Source of the DNA: a virus
Direction: 5' to 3' (one strand)
DNA: 37,180 nucleotides
IMG/VR virus record: IMGVR_UViG_3300045988_118775
Location: 1 to 37,180 of that record
Part shown: positions 8,757 through 27,022 of the stretch, one piece after another
How the letters are laid out: each line of letters begins with the position of its first letter
How positions within the stretch are numbered: position 1 is the stretch's first letter
Translations under genes and position numbers: made by a program
The notes under the pieces: model-generated
Databases searched by the model: none
What the model was told of the DNA's origin: nothing
The model's input: only the letters and a program-made list of their open reading frames with translations

Positions 8757-9278
8757 ATGAAAGTATTTATTAATCCGGGTCATGCTCCGAACGGCGTGCC
8801 GGATCCGGGTGCGGTCAATCCGGTTACTGGTGATCGCGAATGTGATTATGCGTTGACCTGCGGCGAGCAGGTAAGAGATTATCTCATCGCCGCCGGGTGC
8901 AAAGCTGCCATGCTCCAGTCGGACAGCTTAAGCGAAATATGCGAAACGTCCAACGCGTGGGAAGCGGATGTTTTTATTTCTATTCACTGCAACTCGTTTA
9001 ACACGATGGCGCGCGGAACGGAAACGCTTTACAAGTCGGAAGCGGGAAAAGTATTAGCCGACTGTATCCAATCTCAGATTATTAATTCGATTGATACGCT
9101 TGACCGTGGAATTAAGCAAAGAGACCGCCTTTGGGTGCTGAACGGAACCAATGCGCCAGCCGTTTTAGTCGAATTAGCGTTCATCGACAACGCAAACGAC
9201 CTCGAACTTCTGAAAACGCAGTTAAACGCCTTTTCTGCGGCGATTGCGCGCGGCGTGACTGATTATGCCAAGCGGTGA
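8757..9278 (+). CDS. N-acetylmuramoyl-L-alanine amidase endolysin (Amidase_3 catalytic domain only, no wall-binding domain)
   Basis: MKVFINPGHAPNGVPDPGAVNP... plus the ...ELAFIDNANDLE Amidase_3 signature. RBS AAAGGAGAATGAACGATG. Confidence 0.85.
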   Translation: MKVFINPGHAPNGVPDPGAVNPVTGDRECDYALTCGEQVRDYLIAAGCKAAMLQSDSLSEICETSNAWEADVFISIHCNSFNTMARGTETLYKSEAGKVLADCIQSQIINSIDTLDRGIKQRDRLWVLNGTNAPAVLVELAFIDNANDLELLKTQLNAFSAAIARGVTDYAKR

Positions 9279-9607: not shown

Positions 9608-9690
9608 TTAACTTCGTCAAAATTGGTGTTTTCACGAAGCTAAAGTATTGAACTTCGTAAAAAGTAGCATTTTCACGAAGTTAGGCTAGG
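9608..9690 (+). repeat. two tandem ~32-bp imperfect palindromes (aacttcgtcaaaattggtgttttcacgaagct / aacttcgtaaaaagtagcattttcacgaagtt)
   Basis: Each unit has arms cttcgtNaaa / tttcacgaag (10/11 complementary). The two units are direct repeats of each other. Located in the leader of the 9761 gene. Confidence 0.6.
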
Positions 9691-9710
9691 TATCTTTTTT
9701 GCTTTTATCT

Positions 9711-11362: not shown

Positions 11363-11388
11363 ATTTTCCCCCATTGTTCCCCCACGGC
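11363..11388. repeat. 26-bp direct repeat copy B, abutting the integrase stop codon
   Basis: Ends 1 nt into the int stop codon (11388..11390). Confidence 0.6.
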
Positions 11389-12533
11389 TACATTGATATC
11401 TCGTCGAGCTTGTCGGCAGCGTCGCGGTGCATTTTTTCGCTGGCGTGCGAATAAACGGCTAGCGTCGTTTTCGGATTGATATGCCCGACGCGTTCCATGA
11501 TCGTTTTTAGTGGAACGCCTAACTCCGCCAATAAAAATATATGCGTATGCCGAAATACGTGCGTCGTGACATGGCGCGGCAATTTAAGCGAGCGAAGCGT
11601 GTGGTTTATGTCGGAAAAGCGGATAGGGTTGCCCGTCGACGATGTAAAGAAGTAGCCTTTTTCCGTATATTTTCGTCTCCCCCATGCGGCCGCCGATTTC
11701 ATGTTTTCAATCCGGACTTGCTTTAGAATTTCAATGGCTCGATTATTGAGGGCGACAGTCCGGAACGACGACAGCGTTTTGGGTGGCGTTTTTATTTCTT
11801 TGTCAGAAAACGGGATGGAGTGGGTGATCGTGCCGTTAATATCAATATTTCGCCCGTCAAAATCTTGATAACGCAAACCGGAGCATTCGCCGGCGCGTAA
11901 GCCGGTAAGCGCTATAAATTCAAGCATGAGGGCGTATCTCGGCTTTACTTCGTTCACCTTTTGAAGTACTTCCGCCAATTCTTCCCGCGTCAAAAACTTT
12001 TCCCGCGCGCGTTTCACATCGTCAACGGTTTTAGCGCGTCCGGAAACCGTCATTTCATGAATAAAACTTATATCTTCAATATACTTCATGCGTTTAGCGT
12101 ACTTCATGGACTGCTTAAAAAATGAGGCGGTCATGCTGACAGTGACGCCGGACAGGTCGCGCATTTTAAGAAAAGACCTTTGCACAACGGACAGGGTAAT
12201 GGCGGATATTAAAAGCCCGTCGGGAAATATCTTAACAAGCCGCTTAATCGAATCCGCATGCGCGCGCTGTGTTGACGGTCTAACATCGGGGCGGCGGTAC
12301 TCCGCATGCTCTTTTAATAACTCCGCAAGCGTGATATTTTTCACCGTTTTCGTTTCTTGCGCCTCATCAATCTTCTTTTGTAATTCGGCGGTTGCCCATT
12401 TCATGGTCGCATTCGTCTTTTTATCCATGGTGACCGACACGCGCCGACGCGTTCCGGTTAGTCGGTCAATGTACGTTTCGACGGCACGATACGACGTGCG
12501 GCCGCTTTTCGTTTTCCGTTCCTCGATATACAT
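11388..12533 (-). CDS. int: tyrosine site-specific integrase
   Basis: 381 aa. C-terminal catalytic region ...HVFRHTHIFLLAELGVPLKTIMERVGHINPKTTLAVYSH (R..H..R..Y signature) and SAM-like N-domain. RBS AGGAGG. Confidence 0.9.
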   Translation of the reverse strand: MYIEERKTKSGRTSYRAVETYIDRLTGTRRRVSVTMDKKTNATMKWATAELQKKIDEAQETKTVKNITLAELLKEHAEYRRPDVRPSTQRAHADSIKRLVKIFPDGLLISAITLSVVQRSFLKMRDLSGVTVSMTASFFKQSMKYAKRMKYIEDISFIHEMTVSGRAKTVDDVKRAREKFLTREELAEVLQKVNEVKPRYALMLEFIALTGLRAGECSGLRYQDFDGRNIDINGTITHSIPFSDKEIKTPPKTLSSFRTVALNNRAIEILKQVRIENMKSAAAWGRRKYTEKGYFFTSSTGNPIRFSDINHTLRSLKLPRHVTTHVFRHTHIFLLAELGVPLKTIMERVGHINPKTTLAVYSHASEKMHRDAADKLDEISM

Positions 12534-12692: not shown

Positions 12693-13376
12693 TTATTGAA
12701 TAATACTCTGCTTGATGACGGCAATACCTAATATACGGAAATCATCACAGTTGTTAGCGTTGAAAATCATAGGCGGATAAGCGGGATTTTCTGACTGTAA
12801 AATAACGCTTCCGGCGTGGCGATAGAAACGTTTAAGAGTAACGGCGTCGCCGTCGATGCGCACGACTACCACTTGGCCGGATTCCGCCTCATTTTGCGAC
12901 TTAACAAAAACTATATCGCCGTCGTAAATGCCTATGCCGGTCATGCTGTCGCCGTGAACGCGCAAGCAAAAATCGGCGTTTGCCGTTGTTCCGACATAGC
13001 CTTCAAAATATTCATCCGACAATATCGGTTCGCCGGCAGCAGTTGTCCCCAATAAGGGGACTTTTTTTAATTTAGGAACGAAAACATTAGGGTCGTCTGG
13101 AATTGATGACGCTTTGTGGCTACCGGTATTTTCTTTGAATGTGATTGTTTGATCGTCATCAAGCATATCAAACAGATCGCTAGTACTTATTTCCATTGCC
13201 TGCGCAAGCGCCTGCAGCGTATCAGCTGTAGGACTGATCGGTTGACCGGAGCGGGGGTTAATGCCACGCTCGATATATGAAATATATCCTTTGGAGCGCC
13301 CTGATAATTTCGCGAAGTCGTCCAGAGAAAGGCCGCGCGCTTCCCGAAATATTTTAATAATCTCTCCTAGTTTCAT
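12693..13376 (-). CDS. cI: CI-like prophage repressor (XRE HTH + LexA/S24 peptidase domain)
   Basis: N-terminal HTH LSLDDFAKLSGRSKGYISYIERG. C-terminal GDSMTGIGIYDGDIVFV...LKRF (Ser/Lys dyad). Divergent from the cro-like gene. Confidence 0.9.
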   Translation of the reverse strand: MKLGEIIKIFREARGLSLDDFAKLSGRSKGYISYIERGINPRSGQPISPTADTLQALAQAMEISTSDLFDMLDDDQTITFKENTGSHKASSIPDDPNVFVPKLKKVPLLGTTAAGEPILSDEYFEGYVGTTANADFCLRVHGDSMTGIGIYDGDIVFVKSQNEAESGQVVVVRIDGDAVTLKRFYRHAGSVILQSENPAYPPMIFNANNCDDFRILGIAVIKQSIIQ

Positions 13377-14613: not shown

Positions 14614-14988
14614 ATGACGGCAGCAGCCGAACAATGGAAGATGTATCAAGCTGTGAAAGCGTCGCTCCGGGAAGATCAGCAGAACGTGTTGTCGGAGATT
14701 GAACGGCGTATAGCGCAAGCGGGACCAGGGACGCTCGTAGGAATTGATGTTTTTAACGAGGAAGTGAACGCTTGGCGCGGGGGAGAATATACTCGGGCTG
14801 AAAACAGGCGTTTTTTGAAGGAACTGGCGGAAGTTAATATCTGCGCTAAAGATAAACTTACCATTCGAAAGCCATTCAACAGCGTGAAATCACATCATAG
14901 GCGCGGCGATAATACATTTTCGATTTGGTTTTCTAATTACTTCTCAAAGGTAATCGGCGCGTACATTCGCGATAGAAAGGAGGCGTAA
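14614..14988 (+). CDS. hypothetical early protein
   Basis: 124-aa ORF. GGGGG-containing RBS (TGAGGGGGCGAAAAACAAATG). Confidence 0.5.
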   Translation: MTAAAEQWKMYQAVKASLREDQQNVLSEIERRIAQAGPGTLVGIDVFNEEVNAWRGGEYTRAENRRFLKELAEVNICAKDKLTIRKPFNSVKSHHRRGDNTFSIWFSNYFSKVIGAYIRDRKEA

Positions 14989-15744: not shown

Positions 15745-16131
15745 ATGATTGAAATTAAAATCACAGGCGCTAACGCCTTCGAGGTTGTAGCAGAAATGCA
15801 AGGGCTGTTATACGGCGCGTGGCTGAACGCCCAACAGGCAAAGCAATCGACGCGCGAAGCAGTCGCGATTGATACCGCGGTAAAAGCAGCCGCCAATGGC
15901 GCGGAAGTGCCGAGGACGTTGGAAGAGATAAAAGCCGCTGAAAAAGCGCTTAAAAAAGCTTCTGAACCAGCCGCCACCGCCGAGGACGTGAGATCGGCGT
16001 TCGGCGCGGCAATGGATCGCGTCGGCAAAGATAAAGTACAGGCTTTACTCGAAGAGTACGCGCCGAAGCTGTCACAAGTTAAGCCGAAAGATTACGCGGC
16101 ATTAATCGAACGAGCCGAGGCGCTGGCATGA
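15745..16131 (+). CDS. hypothetical Ala-rich early protein
   Basis: 128-aa ORF. RBS TAGGAGGAAATGACCAATG. Stop overlaps the next start (ATGA). Confidence 0.5.
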   Translation: MIEIKITGANAFEVVAEMQGLLYGAWLNAQQAKQSTREAVAIDTAVKAAANGAEVPRTLEEIKAAEKALKKASEPAATAEDVRSAFGAAMDRVGKDKVQALLEEYAPKLSQVKPKDYAALIERAEALA

Positions 16132-17282
16132 GCGGCCCCGGAGCGCACGCGGCGCTATCCGCATCGGGCAGCGCACGCTGGCTTGCCTGTACAGCCGCGC
16201 CGGAGCTTGAAGCGCAGTATCCGGAAGAGCCCGCCTCGGAGTATGCGGCAGAAGGAACAGCCGCCCACGCGCTGGCGGAATACAAACTAAACGCGCGGCT
16301 GCTGGATAACGACGACTCGGACGAACTCGCCCGGATTAAAGAGTCGGAGTATTACGGGGCGGAGATGGAGCGCTGCACCGACGCTTACGCGGATTTTGTC
16401 GCAGAAACGTTTCACGCGATGAGCAAGAACGACGCGGCGACGAAACTGTTTACCGAGACCCGCGTTGACTTTTCAAAGTACGTGCCGGACGGTTTCGGCA
16501 CCGCCGATACTGTCATCACGAACGCGGATACCTTGACGATTATTGACTTGAAATATGGTAAGGGCGTAGCCGTTTCGGCGGAAAACAACAGCCAGCTAAG
16601 GCTGTACGCGCTGGGCGCATACGAAGAGTACGGCTGGCTGTACGAGCCGGAAAAAATCCGCATGGTAATATTCCAGCCGCGCCTGGATCGGATCAGTGAG
16701 GAGACCGTGACGGTAAAAGACCTGATCGCCTGGGGGCGCGATTATGTGGCCCCGCGCGCTAAAGCAGCCGCCACCGGCACAGGCGAATTTGCCCCCGGTG
16801 ATCATTGCCGCTGGTGCAAAGCCCGGGTGCAGTGCCGGGCACGGGCGGAGGCGTACAAAAAGCTACTCGTACATGAATTTGACGATCCGTCGCTGCTGAC
16901 TGATGAAGAGATCGCGGAGATTATCCCACTAGCCGATAAGTTGGCACAATGGGCTAAAGATGTCTACACCTGGGCCCAGGAAGAAGCCGTTAAGGGTAAG
17001 AAATGGCCCGGTTATAAATTGGTCGAAGGCCAACGGCGCCGGAAGATCACCGACGAGGAAGGCCTACTCGCCGAATTGCGCCGCCACCGGCAAAAGCTCG
17101 ACGATATCGCGCCGCGTAAGCTGCTGACTATCGGAAAGCTTGAAAAAGTAGTTGGGAAAAAGAATTTTGCCGCATGGGCCGACGCCTACGTGGAAACACC
17201 GGCAGGGGCGCCGACACTAGTGCCCGAAAGCGATAAGCGGCCGGAATGGAAAAGTATAGAAGATATTATTGATGAATTTTAA
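16128..17282 (+). CDS. PD-(D/E)XK nuclease, DUF2800 / Cas4-like exonuclease
   Basis: 384 aa. C-terminal Cys cluster CRWCKARVQC typical of Cas4/DUF2800 proteins. Conserved partner of phage family-A polymerase modules. Confidence 0.7.
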   Translation: MSGPGAHAALSASGSARWLACTAAPELEAQYPEEPASEYAAEGTAAHALAEYKLNARLLDNDDSDELARIKESEYYGAEMERCTDAYADFVAETFHAMSKNDAATKLFTETRVDFSKYVPDGFGTADTVITNADTLTIIDLKYGKGVAVSAENNSQLRLYALGAYEEYGWLYEPEKIRMVIFQPRLDRISEETVTVKDLIAWGRDYVAPRAKAAATGTGEFAPGDHCRWCKARVQCRARAEAYKKLLVHEFDDPSLLTDEEIAEIIPLADKLAQWAKDVYTWAQEEAVKGKKWPGYKLVEGQRRRKITDEEGLLAELRRHRQKLDDIAPRKLLTIGKLEKVVGKKNFAAWADAYVETPAGAPTLVPESDKRPEWKSIEDIIDEF

Positions 17283-17295
17283 GGAGGATATTCAA

Positions 17296-17844
17296 ATGTC
17301 AAAAAGCACACGTTTAACTACCGGAGAAGTTCGTTTTAATTTCGTTCACGTTTTCGAGCCGCACTCTTTCGAAAATAACCCGCCGAAATACTCGGTAATG
17401 GTATTAGTGCCGAAAAGCGACACAAAGACCCTGGCGGAAATCGCAAAGGCGATTGAAGCCGTCAAGCGTAGCGACAAGGGCAAACAGAATCTGAAAGGCG
17501 TACGCGGCGAAGTGACCTTTTTACGCGACGGCGACGAGGAAAAGGCCGATCAGTACCCGGAATTTGCGGGGCACTACTTCTTTAACGCCTCGTCCAAGGA
17601 TCCGGTTATCGTCGTCGACCGAAATAAACAGGAGATCCTGGATCCGCGCGCGATTTATAGCGGCTGCTATGGTCGTGTTTCCATTGATGTATTTTCGTAT
17701 AATTCGCACGGCAACCGCGGCGTGACAACCGGACTGCGGGCCGTTCAATTACTGCGTGACGGCGAACCGTTGAGCGGCGTCTCGCCGGTGAACGTGGAAG
17801 CCGAATTTGACGACCTCGACGATGCCGACGATATGTGGGGCTAA
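17296..17844 (+). CDS. DUF2815-family protein (putative ssDNA-binding protein of the PolA module)
   Basis: Track ORF 17269..17844. Start ATG 17296 after AAGGAGG. MSKSTRLTTGEVRFNFVHVFEPH... is typical of DUF2815 as recalled. Confidence 0.6.
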   Translation: MSKSTRLTTGEVRFNFVHVFEPHSFENNPPKYSVMVLVPKSDTKTLAEIAKAIEAVKRSDKGKQNLKGVRGEVTFLRDGDEEKADQYPEFAGHYFFNASSKDPVIVVDRNKQEILDPRAIYSGCYGRVSIDVFSYNSHGNRGVTTGLRAVQLLRDGEPLSGVSPVNVEAEFDDLDDADDMWG

Positions 17845-17901: not shown

Positions 17902-19857
17902 ATGAAGCAATTATCAATTGATATTGAGACCTTCTCCGGCGCGGACTTGGGAAAGGTCGGCGTATACAAGTATGCGGAAAGCCCCGATTTTGAAGTGTTA
18001 TTATTCGCGTACGCCTGGGGAAGTGATCCGGTTAAAATAATAGACTTTACCGCCGGCGAAGCTTTGCCCGGTGACGTGTTCAACGCGTTAACGGATCCGG
18101 AAGTCGTAAAAGCCGCGTTTAATGCTAATTTTGAGCGCGTATGCCTATCGCATTTCTTTCATCTGTCGCTAACCGCGGAGCAGTGGGATTGTACACGGGT
18201 GCGCGCATTAACGGCGGGGCTACCGTCATCACTGAAAGGGGCGGGCGCGGCGCTCGGTATCGCTAAAGAGAAAATGGACGAGGGAGCGGGGCTAATTCGT
18301 AAGTTCTGTATGCCTTGTAAGCCGAGCCGGGCGAACGGAGAGCGGACGCGCTGGCGGCCCGCTGACGCGCCGGAGGATTGGGCGATGTTTAAGAAGTACT
18401 GCGCCCGTGACGTCGAGGCGGAGCGGGAAATTCGCGAACGCTTGGACTACATCGAATATACGCAAGCGGAGCGGGAGCTGTACGTGCTGGATCAAAAAAT
18501 AAACGATACGGGCGTTCGCATTGATCGCGGCTTTGTGGAGGCGGCGATCGCCGACGATACGGCATCGGCCGCGGCGACACTTGCGAAAGCGCAGCAGCTA
18601 ACCGGGCTTTCTAACCCGGGGTCGGTATCGCAGATGAAAGAGTGGCTAAAAGAGCAATTAGGGCGCGCTGTTCCGTCGCTTACCAAAGCCGTGGTGGCGG
18701 AACTGATCCACGATGACGCGACGCCCGCGCCGGTAAAAGAAGCCCTGCAATATCGGCAGCGTCTCGGTAAAACGAGCGTTGCGAAGTACCAAAAAATGAA
18801 AGATGTCGCGGGTGAGGGCGATAGGATCCGGGGGCTGTTCCAATTTTACGGAGCGAACCGGACGGGGCGCTTTGCCGGTCGCCTGGTACAATTACAAAAT
18901 TTGCCGCGCAATTCGATCGAGCCCTTAGATCTATTGCGCCGATTAGTGCGGCAAGGTGACGCGGATATGGTCGAGGCGTGGTTTATGCCATTGCCGGTGG
19001 CGCTGTCGCAGCTGGTACGCACGGCGCTAGTCGCGTCACCGGGTAACGTCTTGACCGTGTCTGACTTTTCCGCGATTGAGGCGCGCGTCATTGCCTGGTT
19101 AGCCGGGGAGACCTGGCGAAATGAGGTATTTGCGACGCACGGAAAAATTTATGAAGCGTCCGCGGCGCAAATGTTTCATGTACCGATGGAATCTATTACG
19201 AAGGGCAGCGAACTTCGCCAAAAAGGCAAGGTCGCGGAGCTGGCCTGTGGGTACGGCGGCGGCGTCGGCGCGTTAAAGGCGATGGGCGCCGACAAAATGG
19301 GCTTAAGCGATAGTGAGCTACAAGATATTATCACGCGCTGGCGGGCGAAATCGCCCCGTATCGTGCGACTGTGGTCGGCGTTGGAAGACGCCGCGAAAAT
19401 GGCGATTAAAACGCGCGACACGGTGCGGATCAGACAAGGTATAACAATGTCCGCAACAGACAATTTTTTGCGGGTGTTTTTGCCGTCTGGGCGGTGTTTG
19501 TACTATGCCGAGCCAACAGTTGAGCCGGTGGCGAAATTCGGTAAGTTTATTGACACGGTTACGTACATGGGCGTTAATCAGGCGACGAATAAGTGGGAGC
19601 GGCAGGACACGTACGGCGGTAAGCTTACCGAGAACGTGGTCCAGGCCATCGCGCGCGACTGCTTGGGCGAGGCGATGCGCAGAGTGGATCGCCAAGGATA
19701 CCGGATCGTGGCGCATGTCCACGATGAAATCATCATCGACGGGCCGCGCGGAATTTTGGGAAAGGTGAACGAGATCATGGCGGAACCGATTGACTGGGCG
19801 CCGGGATTACGATTGCGAGGTGATGGCTATGAGACCGAATACTACCGCAAAGATTGA
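17902..19857 (+). CDS. family A DNA polymerase (3'-5' exonuclease + polymerase domains)
   Basis: Exo motif IDIETFS. Motif B region RQKGKVAELACGYGGG. Motif C VAHVHDEIIID. 651 aa. Confidence 0.9.
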   Translation: MKQLSIDIETFSGADLGKVGVYKYAESPDFEVLLFAYAWGSDPVKIIDFTAGEALPGDVFNALTDPEVVKAAFNANFERVCLSHFFHLSLTAEQWDCTRVRALTAGLPSSLKGAGAALGIAKEKMDEGAGLIRKFCMPCKPSRANGERTRWRPADAPEDWAMFKKYCARDVEAEREIRERLDYIEYTQAERELYVLDQKINDTGVRIDRGFVEAAIADDTASAAATLAKAQQLTGLSNPGSVSQMKEWLKEQLGRAVPSLTKAVVAELIHDDATPAPVKEALQYRQRLGKTSVAKYQKMKDVAGEGDRIRGLFQFYGANRTGRFAGRLVQLQNLPRNSIEPLDLLRRLVRQGDADMVEAWFMPLPVALSQLVRTALVASPGNVLTVSDFSAIEARVIAWLAGETWRNEVFATHGKIYEASAAQMFHVPMESITKGSELRQKGKVAELACGYGGGVGALKAMGADKMGLSDSELQDIITRWRAKSPRIVRLWSALEDAAKMAIKTRDTVRIRQGITMSATDNFLRVFLPSGRCLYYAEPTVEPVAKFGKFIDTVTYMGVNQATNKWERQDTYGGKLTENVVQAIARDCLGEAMRRVDRQGYRIVAHVHDEIIIDGPRGILGKVNEIMAEPIDWAPGLRLRGDGYETEYYRKD

Positions 19858-22240
19858 CCCGGCGGCCGCGTATACCGTACGTATTAGCGTAGGCTCTAAC
19901 CGTCAATCGAAAGCGTGGCGCGGGCGCGACTTCACCTGGGGCGAGCTCGCCGAACGGCTGGCCGCGCCAACGCGAACGGCGGAGACGATCGGCGCGTACC
20001 TTAAAATGAGCCGCGCCGAACAGGGCGACATTAAAGACGTTGGCGGCTATGTCGGCGGCGTCATTCGCGGCAGCCGCCGCAAAAAAGGCGCGATGGCGTG
20101 GCGAACACTCGTGACGCTTGACGCGGACTTTGCCGATGATACCTTTTTACCCACGGTAAGAGAACATTTAGTCTGTGCGTGGGTGGCGCACACGACGCAT
20201 AAACACACGGCGCAGTCGCAGCGGTACCGCTTAATCATTCCGACGAGCCGCCCGATGCAGATTGACGAGTTCGCGTTTATTTCGCGCCGGATCGCGGCGG
20301 ATATCGGCGTAGGGTATTTCGATAAGACGACGCACGCCCCGGAGCGGCTGATGTATTGGCCATCGGTCGCAAGCGACGGCGTGTGGGATTACCAGCGGCG
20401 CGCTGGCGAGCTCTTGGACGTTGACGCGTTTCTCGCCGCCAACCCGGGCTGGGAAGATATGAGCGAATGGCGAAGCGAAGACGAGGTTAATTTTAAGCGC
20501 TTAACGCAAAAGCAGCAGGACCCGATCGAAAAGCGCGGGATCGTCGGCGTATTTTGCCGCGAGTATTCGATCACCGAGGCGATGGAGGTATTCTTGCCGG
20601 GCGTATACGCGCCGACAACGCAAGAAAACCGCTTCACGTATACCGACGGCTCGACCGCCGGTGGCGCGCTGTTGTTTGAGAATAAATTTTTATACTCGTT
20701 CCACGCCACGGATCCATGCAGTGAGCACCTGGTCAACGCGTTTGATATGGTCAGGCTGCATAAATTCGGCGCGCTTGACGAGGACGCCAAGGACGGCACG
20801 GTAACAACGAAATTACCGTCATTTTTGGCGATGCAGGACATGGCGCGCGAAGATGGCCGGATCAAGGTCCGGCTACACAAAGAGCAACTGGCCAATGTTG
20901 ATGATGAATTTAGCGACGACGAAGACTGGTCCTGGGCAAAAAAATTGACACTTGACCGCCAGGCCCGAGTGTTACCGACGGCCGCCAACTTCAAGTTGAT
21001 TATGGAACATCACCCGCACGTGCGCGGCATGCTGATCTATAACGATTTTTCATCGCGCTTTGAAGTACTTCGGCGGCCACCATGGCGGCCCGCGGCCGGC
21101 GTCGGCACGGAGCACTGGGGCGAGGCTGACGACGCGGGGCTGACAAATTGGCTTGAAGAGACTTACCAGGTACGAAAGCCAAGCGTTCTAAAAGACGTAC
21201 TGGCGGAGTACCGGTATATTCACCACTACCACCCTGTACGCGACTATTTGCGGGGGCTCGAGTGGGACGGCGAACCGCGCGCCGATACGGTCTTAATCGA
21301 CTTTTTAGGCGCGGAAGATTCGGCCTACGTCCGGACGGTGACGCGAAAAATGCTTCTTGCCGCTGTCGCGCGCGTATTTCAACCGGGGGTCAAGTTTGAT
21401 TACATGTTGGTATTCGTCGGCGGGCAGGGGATCGGTAAATCGTACTTCATTAAGCGATTAGGCGGTAAATGGGCCTCGGATTCGGCTACCAGCATGAGCG
21501 GCAAAGAAAGCTTTGAGCAACTACAGGGTAAGTGGATTCTGGAGTTCGGCGAGCTTGCCGCCATGCGGAAAATGGAGATCGAGCAGGTCAAGTTTTACAT
21601 CTCTAAAGATACCGACAGCTTCCGCCCGGCGTACGGTTACCGCGTGGAAGATTACCCGCGGCAGTGCGTCTTTTTCGGCAGTACGAATAATCAATATTTT
21701 CTAAAAGACCCGACCGGCAACCGGCGCTTTTGGCCGGTGGAAGTAAACGAAGGACATACGCGTAAACTGTTTGATGACTTTAACCAGGAGTACATCGACC
21801 AAGTATGGGCCGAGATGGTCCGCGCCTGGGATAGCGGCGAGCGGCGGCTCTACTTGACGGAAGACGAGGAAAAAGAAGCCTTCGCGCGGCAACAGGCGCA
21901 CCGTGAAATAAGCGACAAAGCGGGCATGGTTGAGGTTTACCTGGATACGCCATTACCGGAGAAATGGAACGACTGGAGCATTGAACAGCGGCAGACGCAG
22001 TTTGACAGCGCGTCGGACGTGAAGGTGGAAGGAAAGATCAGGCGCGATCGCGTTTGCGTCGCGGAGATCTGGACGGAGTGCTTCCAGGGCGCACAGGGTA
22101 AAATGCAACGCCGAGACGCTAACGAAATTCACGAGATCATGATGACGATGCCCGGCTGGGAGCGGTACGCGGAAGGCGGCGGTAAGTTGGATTTTGGGCC
22201 GTACGGAAAACAAAGATCCTATGTCCGTATTGAGAAATAA
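19829..22240 (+). CDS. primase / helicase-like protein, virulence-associated E (VirE) family with P-loop
   Basis: Track ORF 19790..22240. The best start is ATG 19829, 5 nt after GAGGTGA. Walker A GGQGIGKS. Large N-terminal domain consistent with a primase-polymerase. Follows the polymerase. Confidence 0.65.
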   Translation: MRPNTTAKIDPAAAYTVRISVGSNRQSKAWRGRDFTWGELAERLAAPTRTAETIGAYLKMSRAEQGDIKDVGGYVGGVIRGSRRKKGAMAWRTLVTLDADFADDTFLPTVREHLVCAWVAHTTHKHTAQSQRYRLIIPTSRPMQIDEFAFISRRIAADIGVGYFDKTTHAPERLMYWPSVASDGVWDYQRRAGELLDVDAFLAANPGWEDMSEWRSEDEVNFKRLTQKQQDPIEKRGIVGVFCREYSITEAMEVFLPGVYAPTTQENRFTYTDGSTAGGALLFENKFLYSFHATDPCSEHLVNAFDMVRLHKFGALDEDAKDGTVTTKLPSFLAMQDMAREDGRIKVRLHKEQLANVDDEFSDDEDWSWAKKLTLDRQARVLPTAANFKLIMEHHPHVRGMLIYNDFSSRFEVLRRPPWRPAAGVGTEHWGEADDAGLTNWLEETYQVRKPSVLKDVLAEYRYIHHYHPVRDYLRGLEWDGEPRADTVLIDFLGAEDSAYVRTVTRKMLLAAVARVFQPGVKFDYMLVFVGGQGIGKSYFIKRLGGKWASDSATSMSGKESFEQLQGKWILEFGELAAMRKMEIEQVKFYISKDTDSFRPAYGYRVEDYPRQCVFFGSTNNQYFLKDPTGNRRFWPVEVNEGHTRKLFDDFNQEYIDQVWAEMVRAWDSGERRLYLTEDEEKEAFARQQAHREISDKAGMVEVYLDTPLPEKWNDWSIEQRQTQFDSASDVKVEGKIRRDRVCVAEIWTECFQGAQGKMQRRDANEIHEIMMTMPGWERYAEGGGKLDFGPYGKQRSYVRIEK

Positions 22241-22400
22241 TCGGTTGCCGATGACGGCAACGAAAAAGCGATCGGCAATGGCGTCGGCAACGAGATTGAC
22301 AAAAAGTCGTTGCCGATGGTTGCCGTCGTTGCCGATGACGGCAACGGATAAAACCTTTGTATTATATGGTCTAATATATCGTCGTTGCCATCGTTGCCGA
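22241..22400. repeat. iteron-like array: about 10 copies of GTTGCCG / CGGCAAC in both orientations, including two perfect palindromes gttgccg-atga-cggcaac
   Basis: Palindromes at 22245..22262 and 22323..22340. Further copies at 22270..22290, 22300..22320, 22384..22400 and 22516..22532. Confidence 0.8.
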
Positions 22401-22515
22401 TAAATACCCTAAAAAGTTTTTTTATGAATTATGAAGGCATATGTAAACAAAAGCATGAATATCGTATAAGTTTGCCGTCATAAACCGTAAATAATATTTA
22501 TCGTCGATTTTATGG
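22401..22515. promoter_or_regulatory. AT-rich tract adjacent to the iterons (candidate DNA-unwinding element of a replication origin)
   Basis: Strongly AT-rich (aaaaagtttttttatgaattatgaaggcatatgtaaacaaaagcatgaatatcgtataag...) between two iteron clusters. Confidence 0.45.
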
Positions 22516-22561
22516 CAACGACGGCAACGAGACAAATGTAATTGAGAATGGGGCGGTTTTG

Positions 22562-22852
22562 ATGATTGACGAAAGAGACGTTGAACGATACTTGATCAAG
22601 GAGTGCGAAAAGCGCGGCTGGCTGTGTTGGAAGTTTGTATCACCGGGGCGCCGAGGCGTTCCGGATCGGATTGTCATTCGCCCCGGCGGCGTGGCTTTTG
22701 TAGAAGTGAAGCGAAAAGGTGGGCGCGTATCGCCTTTACAGATCCGGCGGATTGAGGAGCTGACCCGGCTGGTGATACCGGCCCGTGTGGTCAAGACGAA
22801 AGGAGAGATCGACGAAATGATCAGAGAGTGGGAGGGGCGCGATGAAGTATGA
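22562..22852 (+). CDS. VRR-NUC domain nuclease
   Basis: 97 aa. GVPDRIVIRPGGVAFVEVKRKGGRVSPLQ carries the D...EVK PD-(D/E)XK signature typical of VRR-NUC. Followed by the SNF2 helicase as usual. Confidence 0.75.
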   Translation: MIDERDVERYLIKECEKRGWLCWKFVSPGRRGVPDRIVIRPGGVAFVEVKRKGGRVSPLQIRRIEELTRLVIPARVVKTKGEIDEMIREWEGRDEV

Positions 22853-24185
22853 TCCGCACGCGTACCAGGAGTACGCTACACAGCGCATAATAGACACGCC
22901 AAAGGTTGGGCTCTTCCTGGATATGGGATTAGGTAAAACGGTATCGACGCTGACGGCTGTCGAGGAGTTGATAAACGACCGTTTCGCCGTGCGTAAGTGT
23001 TTAGTCATTGCCCCGCTGCGCGTGGCCAAGATGACGTGGACGGACGAGGCGGCGAAATGGGATCATCTTCATCTGCGTATTTCGCGCATATTGGGAAGTG
23101 AGGCGGAGCGTAAGCGGGCGCTTGCGACGGACGCTGATGTGTATACGATCAATCGCGAAAACGTGCCCTGGCTGGTTAAGCTGTACGGGCGGCGTTGGCC
23201 GTTCGATATGGTCGTAGTAGATGAATCGTCAAGCTTCAAAAATCATCGTGCTAAACGCTTTCGCGCGCTGCGTCAAGTGCTGGGATTGATCGACCGGCTG
23301 GTACTTTTAACCGGAACGCCAAGCCCGCGTAGTCTGATGGACTTGTGGGCGCAGATGTACCTGTTGGATCAAGGCGCGCGGCTGGGAAAAACCATCGGCG
23401 CGTATCGTGACGCGTATTTTAAGCCGGGTAAGCGTAACGGCTATGTCGTTTATGATTGGATCCTGCGCGACGGAGCGGACGAGGCGATTTACCGGCATAT
23501 CGGCGATGTATGCGTATCGATGACGGCGGACGACTGGTTGACGCTACCGGAACGAGTGACGAACCGGGTCGAGGTGGAATTGCCGCCGGCCGCCCGACGT
23601 ACGTATGACCGACTGTTGCGCGACTTTGTGGCGGAGATTGACGGTAACGAGGTAACGGCGGCGAATGCTGCGGTGCTTACCGGAAAGCTGTTACAGGTGG
23701 CCAACGGCGCGGTATATGACGAAGACGGTGCCGTGCATGAAGTCCACCGGGCGAAACTTGACGCCCTGGCGGAAATCCGCGAAGAGTGCAACGAGCCTAT
23801 GATTGTTTTTTACTGGTACCAACACGACGCGGAGCGGTTACAGAAAGCCTTTCCGGACGCCCGTTTTTTGGAAACCGAGGCGGACCTGGCCGCCTGGAAC
23901 CGCGGCGAGATACCGATGTTATTGTTGCACCCGGCCAGCGCCGGGCACGGCTTGAACCTGCAAGAGGGCGGCCACGTGATCGTCTGGTACGGTCTGACGT
24001 GGAGCCTGGAATTGTACCAACAGGCCAATGCCCGTCTTTACCGTCAAGGGCAAACTAAACCCGTGATCGTGCACCATCTTGTAGCAAAAAACACAATGGA
24101 CAGTCGAGTATTAAATGCCCTTGCCGGTAAATCTATCGGGCAGGACGCGTTAATTGCCGCTGTAAAAGCGGAGATTGGAGCATAA
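22842..24185 (+). CDS. SNF2-family DNA helicase
   Basis: Motif I GLGKT. Motif II VVDESSSFKN (DExx). C-terminal helicase motifs (...YRQGQTKPVIVHHLV). 447 aa. Confidence 0.85.
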   Translation: MKYDPHAYQEYATQRIIDTPKVGLFLDMGLGKTVSTLTAVEELINDRFAVRKCLVIAPLRVAKMTWTDEAAKWDHLHLRISRILGSEAERKRALATDADVYTINRENVPWLVKLYGRRWPFDMVVVDESSSFKNHRAKRFRALRQVLGLIDRLVLLTGTPSPRSLMDLWAQMYLLDQGARLGKTIGAYRDAYFKPGKRNGYVVYDWILRDGADEAIYRHIGDVCVSMTADDWLTLPERVTNRVEVELPPAARRTYDRLLRDFVAEIDGNEVTAANAAVLTGKLLQVANGAVYDEDGAVHEVHRAKLDALAEIREECNEPMIVFYWYQHDAERLQKAFPDARFLETEADLAAWNRGEIPMLLLHPASAGHGLNLQEGGHVIVWYGLTWSLELYQQANARLYRQGQTKPVIVHHLVAKNTMDSRVLNALAGKSIGQDALIAAVKAEIGA

Positions 24186-25322: not shown

Positions 25323-25353
25323 AGGGCGCTTTTTTAATGGAAAGGAGTTGCCC

Positions 25354-25785
25354 GTGGCGAAGTTGACAAGAAAACAAGAGCTATTCGCGGTTGAATACGT
25401 ACGCCTTAAGGGCAACGGTACACAGGCGGCCATTGCGGCCGGTTACAGCAAAAAAACAGCCGCGGCAATAGCAAGAGAAAACCTTAGAAAACTATATATA
25501 AAAAATCGTATTGAAGAGCTGACAGAAAAGGCAGACGCGGAGAAAGTCGCCGACGCGAAAGAAGTGCTGCAACTGTTGACGGAAATAGTCCGCGGTGAGA
25601 TGAGCGAAGAGGTCGTCGCGCTGAACCCGCAAGGCGAGGAAAGCCGGACAAATAGAAAGCCGACAATTAAAGACCGGAGTAAAGCGCTTGAAATTCTTTC
25701 TCGGTGTCTTGGAATGACATTGCCCGAGACACAGGTAAACGTTACTCCGGTCATCATCACCGGAGAGGACAAGCTCGATGAATGA
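25354..25785 (+). CDS. terS: terminase small subunit (Terminase_2 / XtmA-like)
   Basis: GTG 25354 is 7 nt after GAAAGGAG. ...KQELFAVEYVRLKGNGTQAAIAAGYSKKTAAAIARENLRK... is the typical terS HTH region. Confidence 0.8.
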   Translation: MAKLTRKQELFAVEYVRLKGNGTQAAIAAGYSKKTAAAIARENLRKLYIKNRIEELTEKADAEKVADAKEVLQLLTEIVRGEMSEEVVALNPQGEESRTNRKPTIKDRSKALEILSRCLGMTLPETQVNVTPVIITGEDKLDE

Positions 25786-27022
25786 GCGGCGCGTTTATCT
25801 TCCGGACGTAGTTGGTAAAGGCTACGGGGCTTTTTGGAAGTGGCGCGGGCGCTATCGGGTAGTCAAGGGCAGCCGTGCCAGCAAAAAATCGAAAACAACG
25901 GCGCTTTGGTACATTTATAACTTGATGAAGCACCCGGCGGCGAATTTGGTTGTTGTCCGGAAAGTCTTTAGAACACTTCAAAATTCGTGTTTTTCCGACT
26001 TATGCTGGGCGATTGACCGTCTGGGCGTTAGTCCGTACTGGAAAGCGACTAAAAGCCCGCTTGAAATCGTCTACATACCGACAGGGCAAAAAATATTATT
26101 CGTCGGGCTCGATGATCCGTTAAAAATAACGTCGTTATCCGTTCCGCGCGGCGTGCTTTGCTGGGCGTGGATAGAAGAGGCTTACGAAGTTACATCAGAA
26201 GAGGCTTTTAACAGGCTAGATGAATCGATCCGCGGACGGTTGCCGAAAGGCCTATTTACACAGTTAACGCTGACCTTTAACCCGTGGAGTAGCCGCCACT
26301 GGCTGAAAAAGCGCTTTTTCGACGAGGAAAGCCCTCAGGTATTGGCGCTTACCACTGATTACCGATGCAATGAGTTTTTGAGCCCGTCGGATTTGGCGCT
26401 ATTTGAGGAAATGAAAAAGAATAAAAAGCGCTACCGGGTGGCGGGGCTCGGTGACTGGGGCATTGTCGAAGGGCTTATTTATGATAACTGGACTGAAAAA
26501 GCCTTTGATATTGACGCGCTGAGAAATCAGGAAGGAATCAACGCGGCGTTCGGGCTTGACTTCGGTTTTACCACCGACCCGGCGGCGCTATGGTGCGGGC
26601 TAGTGGATAAGGGAAAGCGCCTAATATACGTATTTGATGAACTTTACGAAAAAGGGCTGACGAATCAGGAGCTTTACAAGGCGATCGAGGCGCGCGGCTA
26701 CGCGAAAGAACAGATCACAGCGGACAGCGCAGAGCCTAAATCCATCGAGGAGCTGCGCCGGGCGGGATTGACGAGAGTGCGGAAAAGCCGCAAAGGCCCG
26801 GACAGCATCCGGCACGGCATTCAACAGATACAAAACTTTCAAATTATCGTTCACCCGCGCTGCGTGAATACCTTGCGCGAGTTGTCGTTGTACGCGTGGG
26901 CAAAAGATAAATTCGACGATTACACGGGTAAGCCGGAAGATGACAACAACCACTTAATGGACGCTATGCGTTACGCGCTGGCGGGCGCGCTCGGAAAAGA
27001 GCTAGTCGGCTTTGGAGGTTAA
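25778..27022 (+). CDS. terL: terminase large subunit (PBSX/XtmB family)
   Basis: 414 aa. N-terminal ATPase and C-terminal nuclease. Overlaps the terS stop. Confidence 0.85.
   Translation: MNERRVYLPDVVGKGYGAFWKWRGRYRVVKGSRASKKSKTTALWYIYNLMKHPAANLVVVRKVFRTLQNSCFSDLCWAIDRLGVSPYWKATKSPLEIVYIPTGQKILFVGLDDPLKITSLSVPRGVLCWAWIEEAYEVTSEEAFNRLDESIRGRLPKGLFTQLTLTFNPWSSRHWLKKRFFDEESPQVLALTTDYRCNEFLSPSDLALFEEMKKNKKRYRVAGLGDWGIVEGLIYDNWTEKAFDIDALRNQEGINAAFGLDFGFTTDPAALWCGLVDKGKRLIYVFDELYEKGLTNQELYKAIEARGYAKEQITADSAEPKSIEELRRAGLTRVRKSRKGPDSIRHGIQQIQNFQIIVHPRCVNTLRELSLYAWAKDKFDDYTGKPEDDNNHLMDAMRYALAGALGKELVGFGG

Follow-up and report, generated by a model that had tools for sequence, protein, structure and literature searches.

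A candidate SaPI-like replication origin between the primase-helicase and VRR-NUC genes of a Negativicute prophage

Origins of replication are rarely annotated in phage genomes. The locus considered here is a 318-bp gap (22241-22558) within a stretch of 37,180 nucleotides (IMG/VR record IMGVR_UViG_3300045988_118775, positions 1 to 37,180; hereafter the window), the genome of a gut or oral Negativicute prophage. The gap separates the gene of a VapE-type primase-helicase from that of a VRR-NUC nuclease and is filled with short repeats, or iterons, on both sides of an AT-rich tract. An earlier inspection of the DNA (the original prediction) had proposed it as a replication origin, which raises the question of what reads these repeats and what they do. 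We conclude that the gap is very probably the vegetative, initiator-bound replication origin of the phage, built like the origins of staphylococcal pathogenicity islands (SaPIs), with the primase-helicase as its initiator.

The exact heptamer GTTGCCG, or its complement CGGCAAC, occurs nine times between 22244 and 22528 and 14 times in the remaining 36.9 kb, while dinucleotide shuffles of the whole window give 8.3 +/- 2.8 copies. Hexamer cores (GTTGCC or GGCAAC) number 11 in the gap, and every other 318-bp stretch of the window holds two at most (Poisson P = 3e-15 for the gap count); when the gap itself is shuffled, any 6-mer reaches at most five copies. The expectation of about ten copies in both orientations within 300 bp is borne out by nine exact heptamers, 11 hexamer cores and two further copies that differ by one base. 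The oriented copies give the extended consensus CGTTGCCG, and tandem copies are spaced 9-10 bp apart. Their arrangement is as follows.

22244+, 22256-, 22286-, 22309+, 22319+, 22328+, 22340-, 22384+, 22393+, 22514-, 22523-: GTTGCC cores, with strand
22273- (ATTGCCG) and 22471+ (TTTGCCG): one-base variants of the core
22244-22345, both orientations: distal (left) iteron array, seven GTTGCC cores and one ATTGCC, including two head-to-head pairs
22244-22261 and 22328-22345: 18-bp palindrome GTTGCCGATGACGGCAAC, two identical copies
22384-22398, plus strand: inner left tandem pair GTTGCCATCGTTGCC, abutting the AT-rich spacer
22399-22513: AT-rich spacer, proposed DNA-unwinding element, 115 bp, 25% GC, repeat-free apart from a degenerate TTTGCCGTCAT
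22514-22528, minus strand: inner right tandem pair GGCAACGACGGCAAC, inverted relative to the left pair

Two identical palindromes had been singled out in the original prediction, and both exist, though not at 22245-22262 and 22323-22340, where they had been placed. They look like two iterons set head to head and not like a separate element, so that a role of their own was overstated. Similarly, the repeats that had been taken for a further inverted pair are real but misdescribed, being a tandem pair of GGCAAC whose orientation is opposite to that of the GTTGCC tandem across the spacer. The AT-rich stretch of roughly 110 bp said to interrupt the repeats corresponds to the 115-bp spacer, whose 25% GC stands against a window average of 51%. 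Only one other 100-bp stretch of the window is less stable (99.9th percentile), and the sequence of the spacer is strongly conserved among eight relatives. Iteron cores are invariant among relatives while the bases that flank them vary, which is a phylogenetic footprint. The first iteron begins 4 nt after the primase-helicase stop codon (TAA, 22238-22240), and the block extends from this stop to the VRR-NUC start codon at 22563, as had been claimed. It is also non-coding, as predicted: the two small open reading frames that overlap it, at 22194-22403 (plus strand) and 22219-22344 (minus strand), have no PHROG match, and one-base indels in close relatives disrupt the frames of both. The primase-helicase gene itself contains two isolated exact heptamers towards its 3' end, at 21715-21721 and 21887-21893 (minus strand). 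No more than about 530 bp separates them from the array downstream, and they could be outlying iterons or chance occurrences.

The gene upstream of the array encodes a protein of the kind that such an origin needs, and the features relevant to its reading are these.

19790-22240, plus strand: VapE-type primase-helicase gene (initiator), Pfam VapE-like domain 8.7e-79, PHROG 256
21992-22237, plus strand: initiator C-terminal domain, residues 735-816, a predicted winged helix and proposed iteron reader
22178-22192, plus strand: codons 797-801 (GGKLD), at the beginning of the beta-hairpin wing, with residues 797, 798 and 801 numbered 63, 64 and 67 in the model
22563-22852, plus strand: VRR-NUC nuclease gene, the right-hand boundary of the origin, Pfam VRR_NUC 3.4e-7, PHROG 93, ATG at 22563

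Three domains make up the protein, namely an N-terminal primase-polymerase of the archaeo-eukaryotic primase (AEP) type, a superfamily 3 (SF3) helicase of the VapE kind and a C-terminal winged helix. Translation likely starts at the ATG at 19829 (residue 14), because a 97%-identical homologue, P0003, has 803 amino acids. When distant homologues are aligned, residues D111, D113, H137 and H139 do not vary and, in our own reading, fit the DxD and sxH motifs of AEP primase-polymerases. A phmmer comparison with the PDB sequences matched residues 379-738 to residues 16-377 of SaPI1 Rep1 (7PDS_A, E=1.1e-76), and entry 7PDS is a complex of Rep1 with DNA. For the C-terminal domain (the last 82 residues), an AlphaFold2 model was built from a 42-sequence alignment (mean confidence, pLDDT, 84). 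Given this model alone, Foldseek placed the six chains of 7PDS as the top six matches in the PDB (probability 0.94-1.0, query TM-score 0.52-0.60), followed by winged helices of forkhead, IRF, PadR and Fur proteins. The domain is thus predicted to share its fold with the winged helix of SaPI1 Rep1. A word-indexed protein search with the C-terminal 117 amino acids returned two fragments only; homologues came from the full-length query. Within this domain a helix of the form EI[H/N]xI[ML] carries His in lineages with iterons that contain GGC or GCC (GGCAAC, GGCTAT, GGCAACA, GGAACC) and Asn in most others, the loci with GGC-containing iterons being the window, L013, L028, L036, L024, L003 and L004; the His/Asn difference may hint at a contact made by the recognition helix.

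Origins of this kind are already known from the SaPIs and the wider class of phage-inducible chromosomal islands (PICIs). A SaPI origin lies directly downstream of rep and consists of 6-12 penta- or hexanucleotide iterons with an AT-rich region near the centre, keeping at least two iterons on each side of that region in opposite directions; the C-terminal winged helix of Rep reads the iterons, and Rep needs no accessory factors for its own loading (PMC9371898, citing Ubeda et al. 2007 PNAS and 2012 Plasmid for SaPI origins). The array of the window likewise lies in non-coding DNA immediately after the open reading frame of the initiator-helicase, with 11 exact and two one-off copies. Its AT-rich tract has iterons on both sides, although it is central only loosely, and the opposed copies number two on each side (22384 and 22393 on the plus strand, 22514 and 22523 on the minus strand). 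SaPI and PICI initiators are self-loading helicases of SF3 or SF6, and the window protein is homologous to one of them, SaPI1 Rep1; its primase is fused to the helicase, as in PriRep5 of SaPI5. The islands are further characterised by a cognate Rep that needs no ATP to bind and melt the origin, and by an origin that replicates autonomously when combined with rep (and pri). Iterons are 5-6 nt long in SaPIs and have a core of 6-8 nt in the window, and in both their sequence is specific to the element. Unlike the SaPIs, which are satellite islands, the window represents an entire temperate phage that encodes a family-A polymerase, single-stranded DNA-binding protein (SSB), exonuclease, VRR-NUC and SNF2 proteins of its own; furthermore, its host is a Negativicute and not Staphylococcus, and its origin is a predicted one.

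To compare close relatives, eight sequences were aligned (the window, L099, L001, L102, L002, L004, L093 and L003). Iterons are GTTGCC in the window, L099, L001, L102 and L002, and ATAGCC at the same positions in L004, L093 and L003, and these types cut across two backbone lineages with initiators approximately 97% and 82% identical to that of the window. Only three of 812 initiator columns separate the types, positions 797, 798 and 801, with GG..D/R/K in GTTGCC-type and NS/NN..W in ATAGCC-type sequences; the neighbouring genes have one separating column in PolA (of 408) and none in SSB, DUF2800, VRR-NUC or SNF2. Wing type and inner-pair type agree in all eight relatives. This co-variation supports the view that the winged helix of the initiator is what reads the iterons.

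Recombination has left intermediate states that bear on this point. The right pair is fully or partly GGCTAT/GGCAAT in ATAGCC-type relatives while the intervening spacer is conserved: L093 has two full copies, L004 one half-switched and one full copy, and L003 the half-switched GGCAAT GGCAAT. A recombination tract in L003 runs from approximately codon 795 into the spacer, and its right pair lies beyond the tract in L002-type sequence. L102 (OKDJ01000019.1, 1227-1619) is a mosaic in which the wing and first iteron resemble the window, the distal array resembles L004, and the inner pair, spacer and right pair resemble L001. Four ATAGCC copies of its distal array are now GTAGCC, with the sequence between iterons still L004-like, and its wing and inner pairs match across the intervening segment of other ancestry. 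Recombination appears to occur within the iteron array itself, and the right pair of L003 together with the mosaic of L102 argue against simple linkage; both are as would be expected from selection that keeps iterons matched to their initiator. L102 further suggests that the inner pairs are the essential ones, and the mosaic or half-converted arrays (L102, and L003 and L004 with their ATTGCC right-pair copies) suggest ongoing selection to re-match iterons after recombination. It is a tentative proposal, which we regard as somewhat less probable than its negation, that residues 797, 798 and 801 form the recognition switch from GTTGCC to ATAGCC, so that initiators 97% identical would make mutually orthogonal initiator-origin pairs. 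Residue 745 had seemed a fourth co-varying column with five loci and was lost once L093 was added, and Trp at 801 fails as a predictor of an A-containing iteron in distant lineages, since L095 has Trp and the iteron ATGTTC. The iteron-like, degenerate TTTGCCGTCAT at 22471-22481 within the spacer is almost invariant in the eight relatives and is not switched to the ATAGCC type; it may be read by something else, or be a priming or start site.

The same arrangement recurs in phages that are only distantly related. Full-length homologues of the initiator, 34-46% identical, are encoded in annotated Staphylococcus (Triavirus), Paenibacillus, Clostridium and Bacteroides phages, and in all four groups an unannotated gap of 280-345 bp is kept between primase-helicase and VRR-NUC, each with about ten copies of a short repeat of its own in both orientations and an AT-rich segment. 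These repeats are given below.

Staphylococcus phages: TGATGCAACA
Paenibacillus phages: TACTGCAACA
Clostridium phages: GTATCC
Bacteroides phages: GTAAACGG

Intermediate relatives, 51-57% identical, carry other iterons again (TGTTTACA and ATG[CT]ACA). An array scan covered 89 sequences, the window and 88 related loci that include 80 further viral contigs, and looked for a 7-mer that occurs five times or more within 330 bp downstream of the primase stop codon. SNF2 and the primase stop served as locus anchors, the 95-amino-acid VRR-NUC being too short and divergent for tblastn at most loci. About 50 of the 89 sequences reach this count, with a 7-mer specific to the lineage, and none of the control windows in the same loci do so. 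Of 52 non-identical array loci, 43 have a longest repeat-free interval of 85 bp or more (mostly about 100-130 bp, with 20-35% GC), and 43 of the 52 have iterons of opposite orientation at the two edges of this interval. We found no description of an origin between VirE/VapE and VRR-NUC for the PolA-VapE-VRR-NUC-SNF2 phage module in the literature, our coverage of which was incomplete. The original prediction had held this to be the expected place for a phage origin with initiator-binding iterons and an unwinding element; the homology of the initiator, the SaPI layout, the recurrence across phages and the co-variation all support that expectation at the level of sequence comparison.

Within the AT-rich spacers of distant loci with different iterons a GC-containing motif, CGCGTATA or ATACGCG, was also seen (L008, L019, L027, L031, L034, L035, L036 and L089 among them), and it is degenerate in the window (CGTATAA, 22463-22469). 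GCGTATA occurs in 13 of 32 non-redundant spacers against 2.6 expected (z of about 7), and the motif could be a second, family-wide element, for example one where the primase starts or a host factor acts. Scans with the spacer pattern added little, as only the contigs of L001 and L002 were found again among viral contigs and six of nine matches in metagenomes were unrelated coding DNA.

If the gap works as SaPI origins do, the following course of events can be proposed by analogy, since binding, melting, self-loading and origin firing are all modelled on that system. The primase-helicase would recognise GTTGCC (within the consensus above) through its C-terminal winged-helix domain, and approximately 13 copies would concentrate it on the DNA. 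The opposed tandem pairs bracketing the spacer would position helicase rings on either side, the 115-bp spacer would melt and the SF3 helicase would load itself. The AEP primase domain of the initiator would then make primers, which the family-A polymerase and the Gp2.5-like SSB, both encoded just upstream, would extend.

Several observations weigh against this origin or against its reading by the wing. The iterons are lopsided, with approximately ten to the left of the spacer and two to the right, where SaPI origins are described as having roughly half on each side, and the Foldseek matches of the C-terminal domain have weak E-values (0.025-0.18), albeit with probabilities of about 1. Only about 50-60 nt separate the wing codons from the first iteron, and the L003 tract covers both, so that hitch-hiking accounts for part of the co-variation. 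Since the distal GTAGCC copies of L102, about six in number, mismatch its wing type, either the wing is not strict at the third position or the distal copies are dispensable. In one clade of primase-helicases no array was found within 2.5 kb on either side, which makes the placement common and not universal; the origin of that clade must lie elsewhere or be built differently. Its members (L043, L044, L048, L049, L055, L058, L060, L065 and L081, also L047, L051, L057, L063 and similar) have a C-terminal domain ending in ...STKNFP[IL]YGKQKYY, with VRR-NUC directly after the primase in part of the clade and, in some members, only about 260 bp from the primase stop to the SNF2 gene. GC skew is positive on both sides of the gap with no change of sign, which is listed here but is uninformative rather than contrary.

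Other functions must be considered for an intergenic block of this kind. An operator and promoter is one of them, the array being bound by a phage transcription factor that controls VRR-NUC, SNF2 and the late genes from a promoter in the AT-rich tract. The region does lie between two co-directional genes, AT-rich DNA with short inverted repeats is typical of operators, L089 has a TTGACT-17-GATAAT-like site just upstream of VRR-NUC, and a predicted transcriptional regulator (PHROG 36) is encoded 2 kb downstream, which was compared with one ATAGCC-type locus only. A consensus scan of 21800-23000 found no sigma-70-like promoter on the plus strand, however, its three matches all being on the minus strand, which has no gene there. 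A layout of 13 copies that span 290 bp in both orientations and surround a spacer of about 115 bp is not that of an operator; the repeat type follows residues of the primase-helicase, with no tracking column in comparable neighbour genes save the one in PolA; and the layout stays tied to the primase-helicase gene across phyla, whatever genes come next. We regard an operator as quite unlikely. The gap might instead act as a folded single strand, whether a small RNA, an attenuator or a primosome-assembly hairpin like ssiA/ssiB of RSF1010, in which case the iterons would be just the arms of stems. The plus strand folds at -116 kcal/mol (z = -7.3 against shuffles), RNAalifold finds 18 pairs with changes on both sides in six relatives, and a 67-nt imperfect dyad (inverted repeat) spans the spacer. 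Yet strong folding and apparently compensatory pairs arise because inverted copies of one motif all switch together: the stems are all of one sequence and all change to the same new sequence, which structure alone does not require, and tandem direct copies switch too. Orientations are very unequal elsewhere (eight against two in L037, 13 against two in L009), leaving most copies unpaired, and a permissive Rfam search of 21900-22900 gave only two noise matches (a microRNA and ureB sRNA, 15-16 bits). No terminator was found on the plus strand near the gap, where terminator-like hairpins occur only on the minus strand, which has no gene there; the first plus-strand hairpin is not a terminator because no T-tract follows it. 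A folded element is very unlikely on this evidence.

Packaging offers a further reading, as some pac sites, such as that of SPP1, contain repeated boxes, and here the replication module is directly followed by the packaging module (TerS, TerL), whose small terminase could bind the array. Five genes and 2.8 kb nevertheless separate the array from terS downstream, the same layout is found beside a different packaging module (for example in Staphylococcus Triavirus, with an HNH endonuclease gene versus the Terminase_2-type TerS here), and the repeat type follows the wing of the primase-helicase. A pac site is hardly credible. A further alternative is an origin whose iterons are read by another protein, a small early protein or a host factor, with the primase-helicase recruited secondarily. 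Direct binding by the initiator is itself inferred, linkage could account for much of the wing co-variation, L102 tolerates a mismatch between its distal copies and its wing, and several small early reading frames of unassigned function lie upstream (for example 14614-14988 and 15745-16131). The related loci used in the switch comparison are too short to reach these small frames. Against this, the winged helix of SaPI Rep is the iteron reader and needs no accessory factor (PMC9371898), and the C-terminal domain of the window protein has the same fold as that of Rep1 in its model. Wing and inner pair match in all eight loci, even across a segment of foreign ancestry, while PolA, SSB, DUF2800, VRR-NUC and SNF2 have no cluster of co-varying residues. 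We consider a separate reader unlikely, and retain the SaPI-like origin with the primase-helicase as its reader.

Among other replication systems several designs can be compared with this origin. A DnaA-dependent origin requires a cluster of DnaA boxes (TTATCCACA), of which none was found with one mismatch or fewer in 22200-22600, where a single match has two mismatches. An origin of the lambda type has its iterons and AT-rich region inside the initiator gene, as in the O gene, whereas this array begins past the stop codon and the gene itself holds just the two isolated heptamers. The origin of P4 consists of short type I iterons in both orientations, requires a second cluster, crr, approximately 4.5 kb away, and is not placed immediately after the alpha gene; as for the primase, that of P4 belongs to the Toprim type and that of the window to the AEP type. 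Work by Ziegelin, Lanka and co-workers in the 1990s reportedly showed that P4 alpha unites primase, SF3 helicase and a C-terminal origin-binding domain in one polypeptide. A single-polypeptide initiator and iterons in both orientations are thus common to P4 and the window, but an arrangement of ori and crr was not recovered, as no second cluster was found and no other 318-bp stretch of the window holds more than two cores. The proposed origin would work like those of SV40 large T antigen and papillomavirus E1, at which two SF3 helicase hexamers assemble head to head, guided by short inverted repeats on both sides of a segment that is AT-rich or melts easily. There the origin-binding domain has a different fold and stands on the other side of the helicase, so that the resemblance is of mechanism only, with homology limited to the helicase core. 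In Streptococcus thermophilus phage Sfi21, Foley et al. are said to have described in 1998 a non-coding repeat region downstream of a P4-alpha/VirE-like primase gene, which reportedly behaves as an origin and confers phage-encoded resistance when cloned; its module and repeat organisation differ from those of the window. The archaeal plasmid pRN1 encodes ORF904, a prim-pol fused to an SF3 helicase, and has an essential 166-bp cis element directly downstream of its gene (PMC4234260); this element is a single putative stem-loop region, without an iteron array or an AT-rich spacer with opposed pairs. P4 and pRN1 are looser relatives of this origin than the SaPIs and PICIs.

Gene content identifies the window as a complete temperate siphovirus-type genome. 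The host of the phage is probably a Veillonellaceae bacterium (a Negativicute), and two metagenome-assembled genomes of Veillonellaceae hold close relatives of it. Its replication module runs rightward through DUF2800 exonuclease, SSB, polymerase, primase-helicase, the 318-bp gap, VRR-NUC and SNF2, with the packaging module directly downstream; an SPP1-type portal gene is also encoded. Landmarks outside the origin are the following.

8757-9278: amidase endolysin
11388-12533, minus strand: tyrosine integrase
12693-13376, minus strand: CI-like HTH/S24 repressor
16128-17282: DUF2800 PD-(D/E)XK exonuclease, replication module
17269-17844: Gp2.5/Enc34-like SSB, replication module
17902-19857: family-A DNA polymerase (PolA), replication module
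22842-24185: SNF2 helicase gene, next after VRR-NUC, SNF2 match 1.2e-18
25348-25785: TerS (Terminase_2-type), packaging module
25778-27022: TerL, packaging module

At the DNA level no match to known phages was found in the gap, and elsewhere only short pieces inside the helicase genes match, at 65-75% identity. An octamer, ATTGAGAA, stands at 22229-22236, at the end of the primase-helicase gene (ATTGAGAAATAA), and again at 22541-22548, shortly before the ribosome-binding site of VRR-NUC; neither copy varies among the eight close relatives, and together they form a direct repeat that brackets the whole origin. They could be cassette boundaries, recombination points or chance. The least stable and most AT-rich 100-bp stretch of the window is found at 9640-9706, in non-coding DNA between the lysis genes and the integrase side, and could be an attachment site or prophage boundary.

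For this Negativicute prophage the result is a concrete and testable origin. More widely, many members of a large family of temperate phages, which carry the PolA, VapE, VRR-NUC and SNF2 module and infect Bacillota and Bacteroidota, share the SaPI-style arrangement: a fused primase-helicase with a winged-helix tail and, directly after it, iterons of its own on both sides of an AT-rich spacer of about 100-120 bp. This arrangement yields a rule for annotating their origins. It also suggests that the replicons of satellite islands share ancestry with phage replicons. In the switch between GTTGCC and ATAGCC, with its three wing residues, nature has run a small experiment on the evolution of initiator-origin specificity, which could guide swap experiments. 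If the wing switch is true, it would make the replicons of closely related prophages 'immune' to one another, or to satellites with copied origins, and would be a natural starting point for engineering orthogonal phage replicons.

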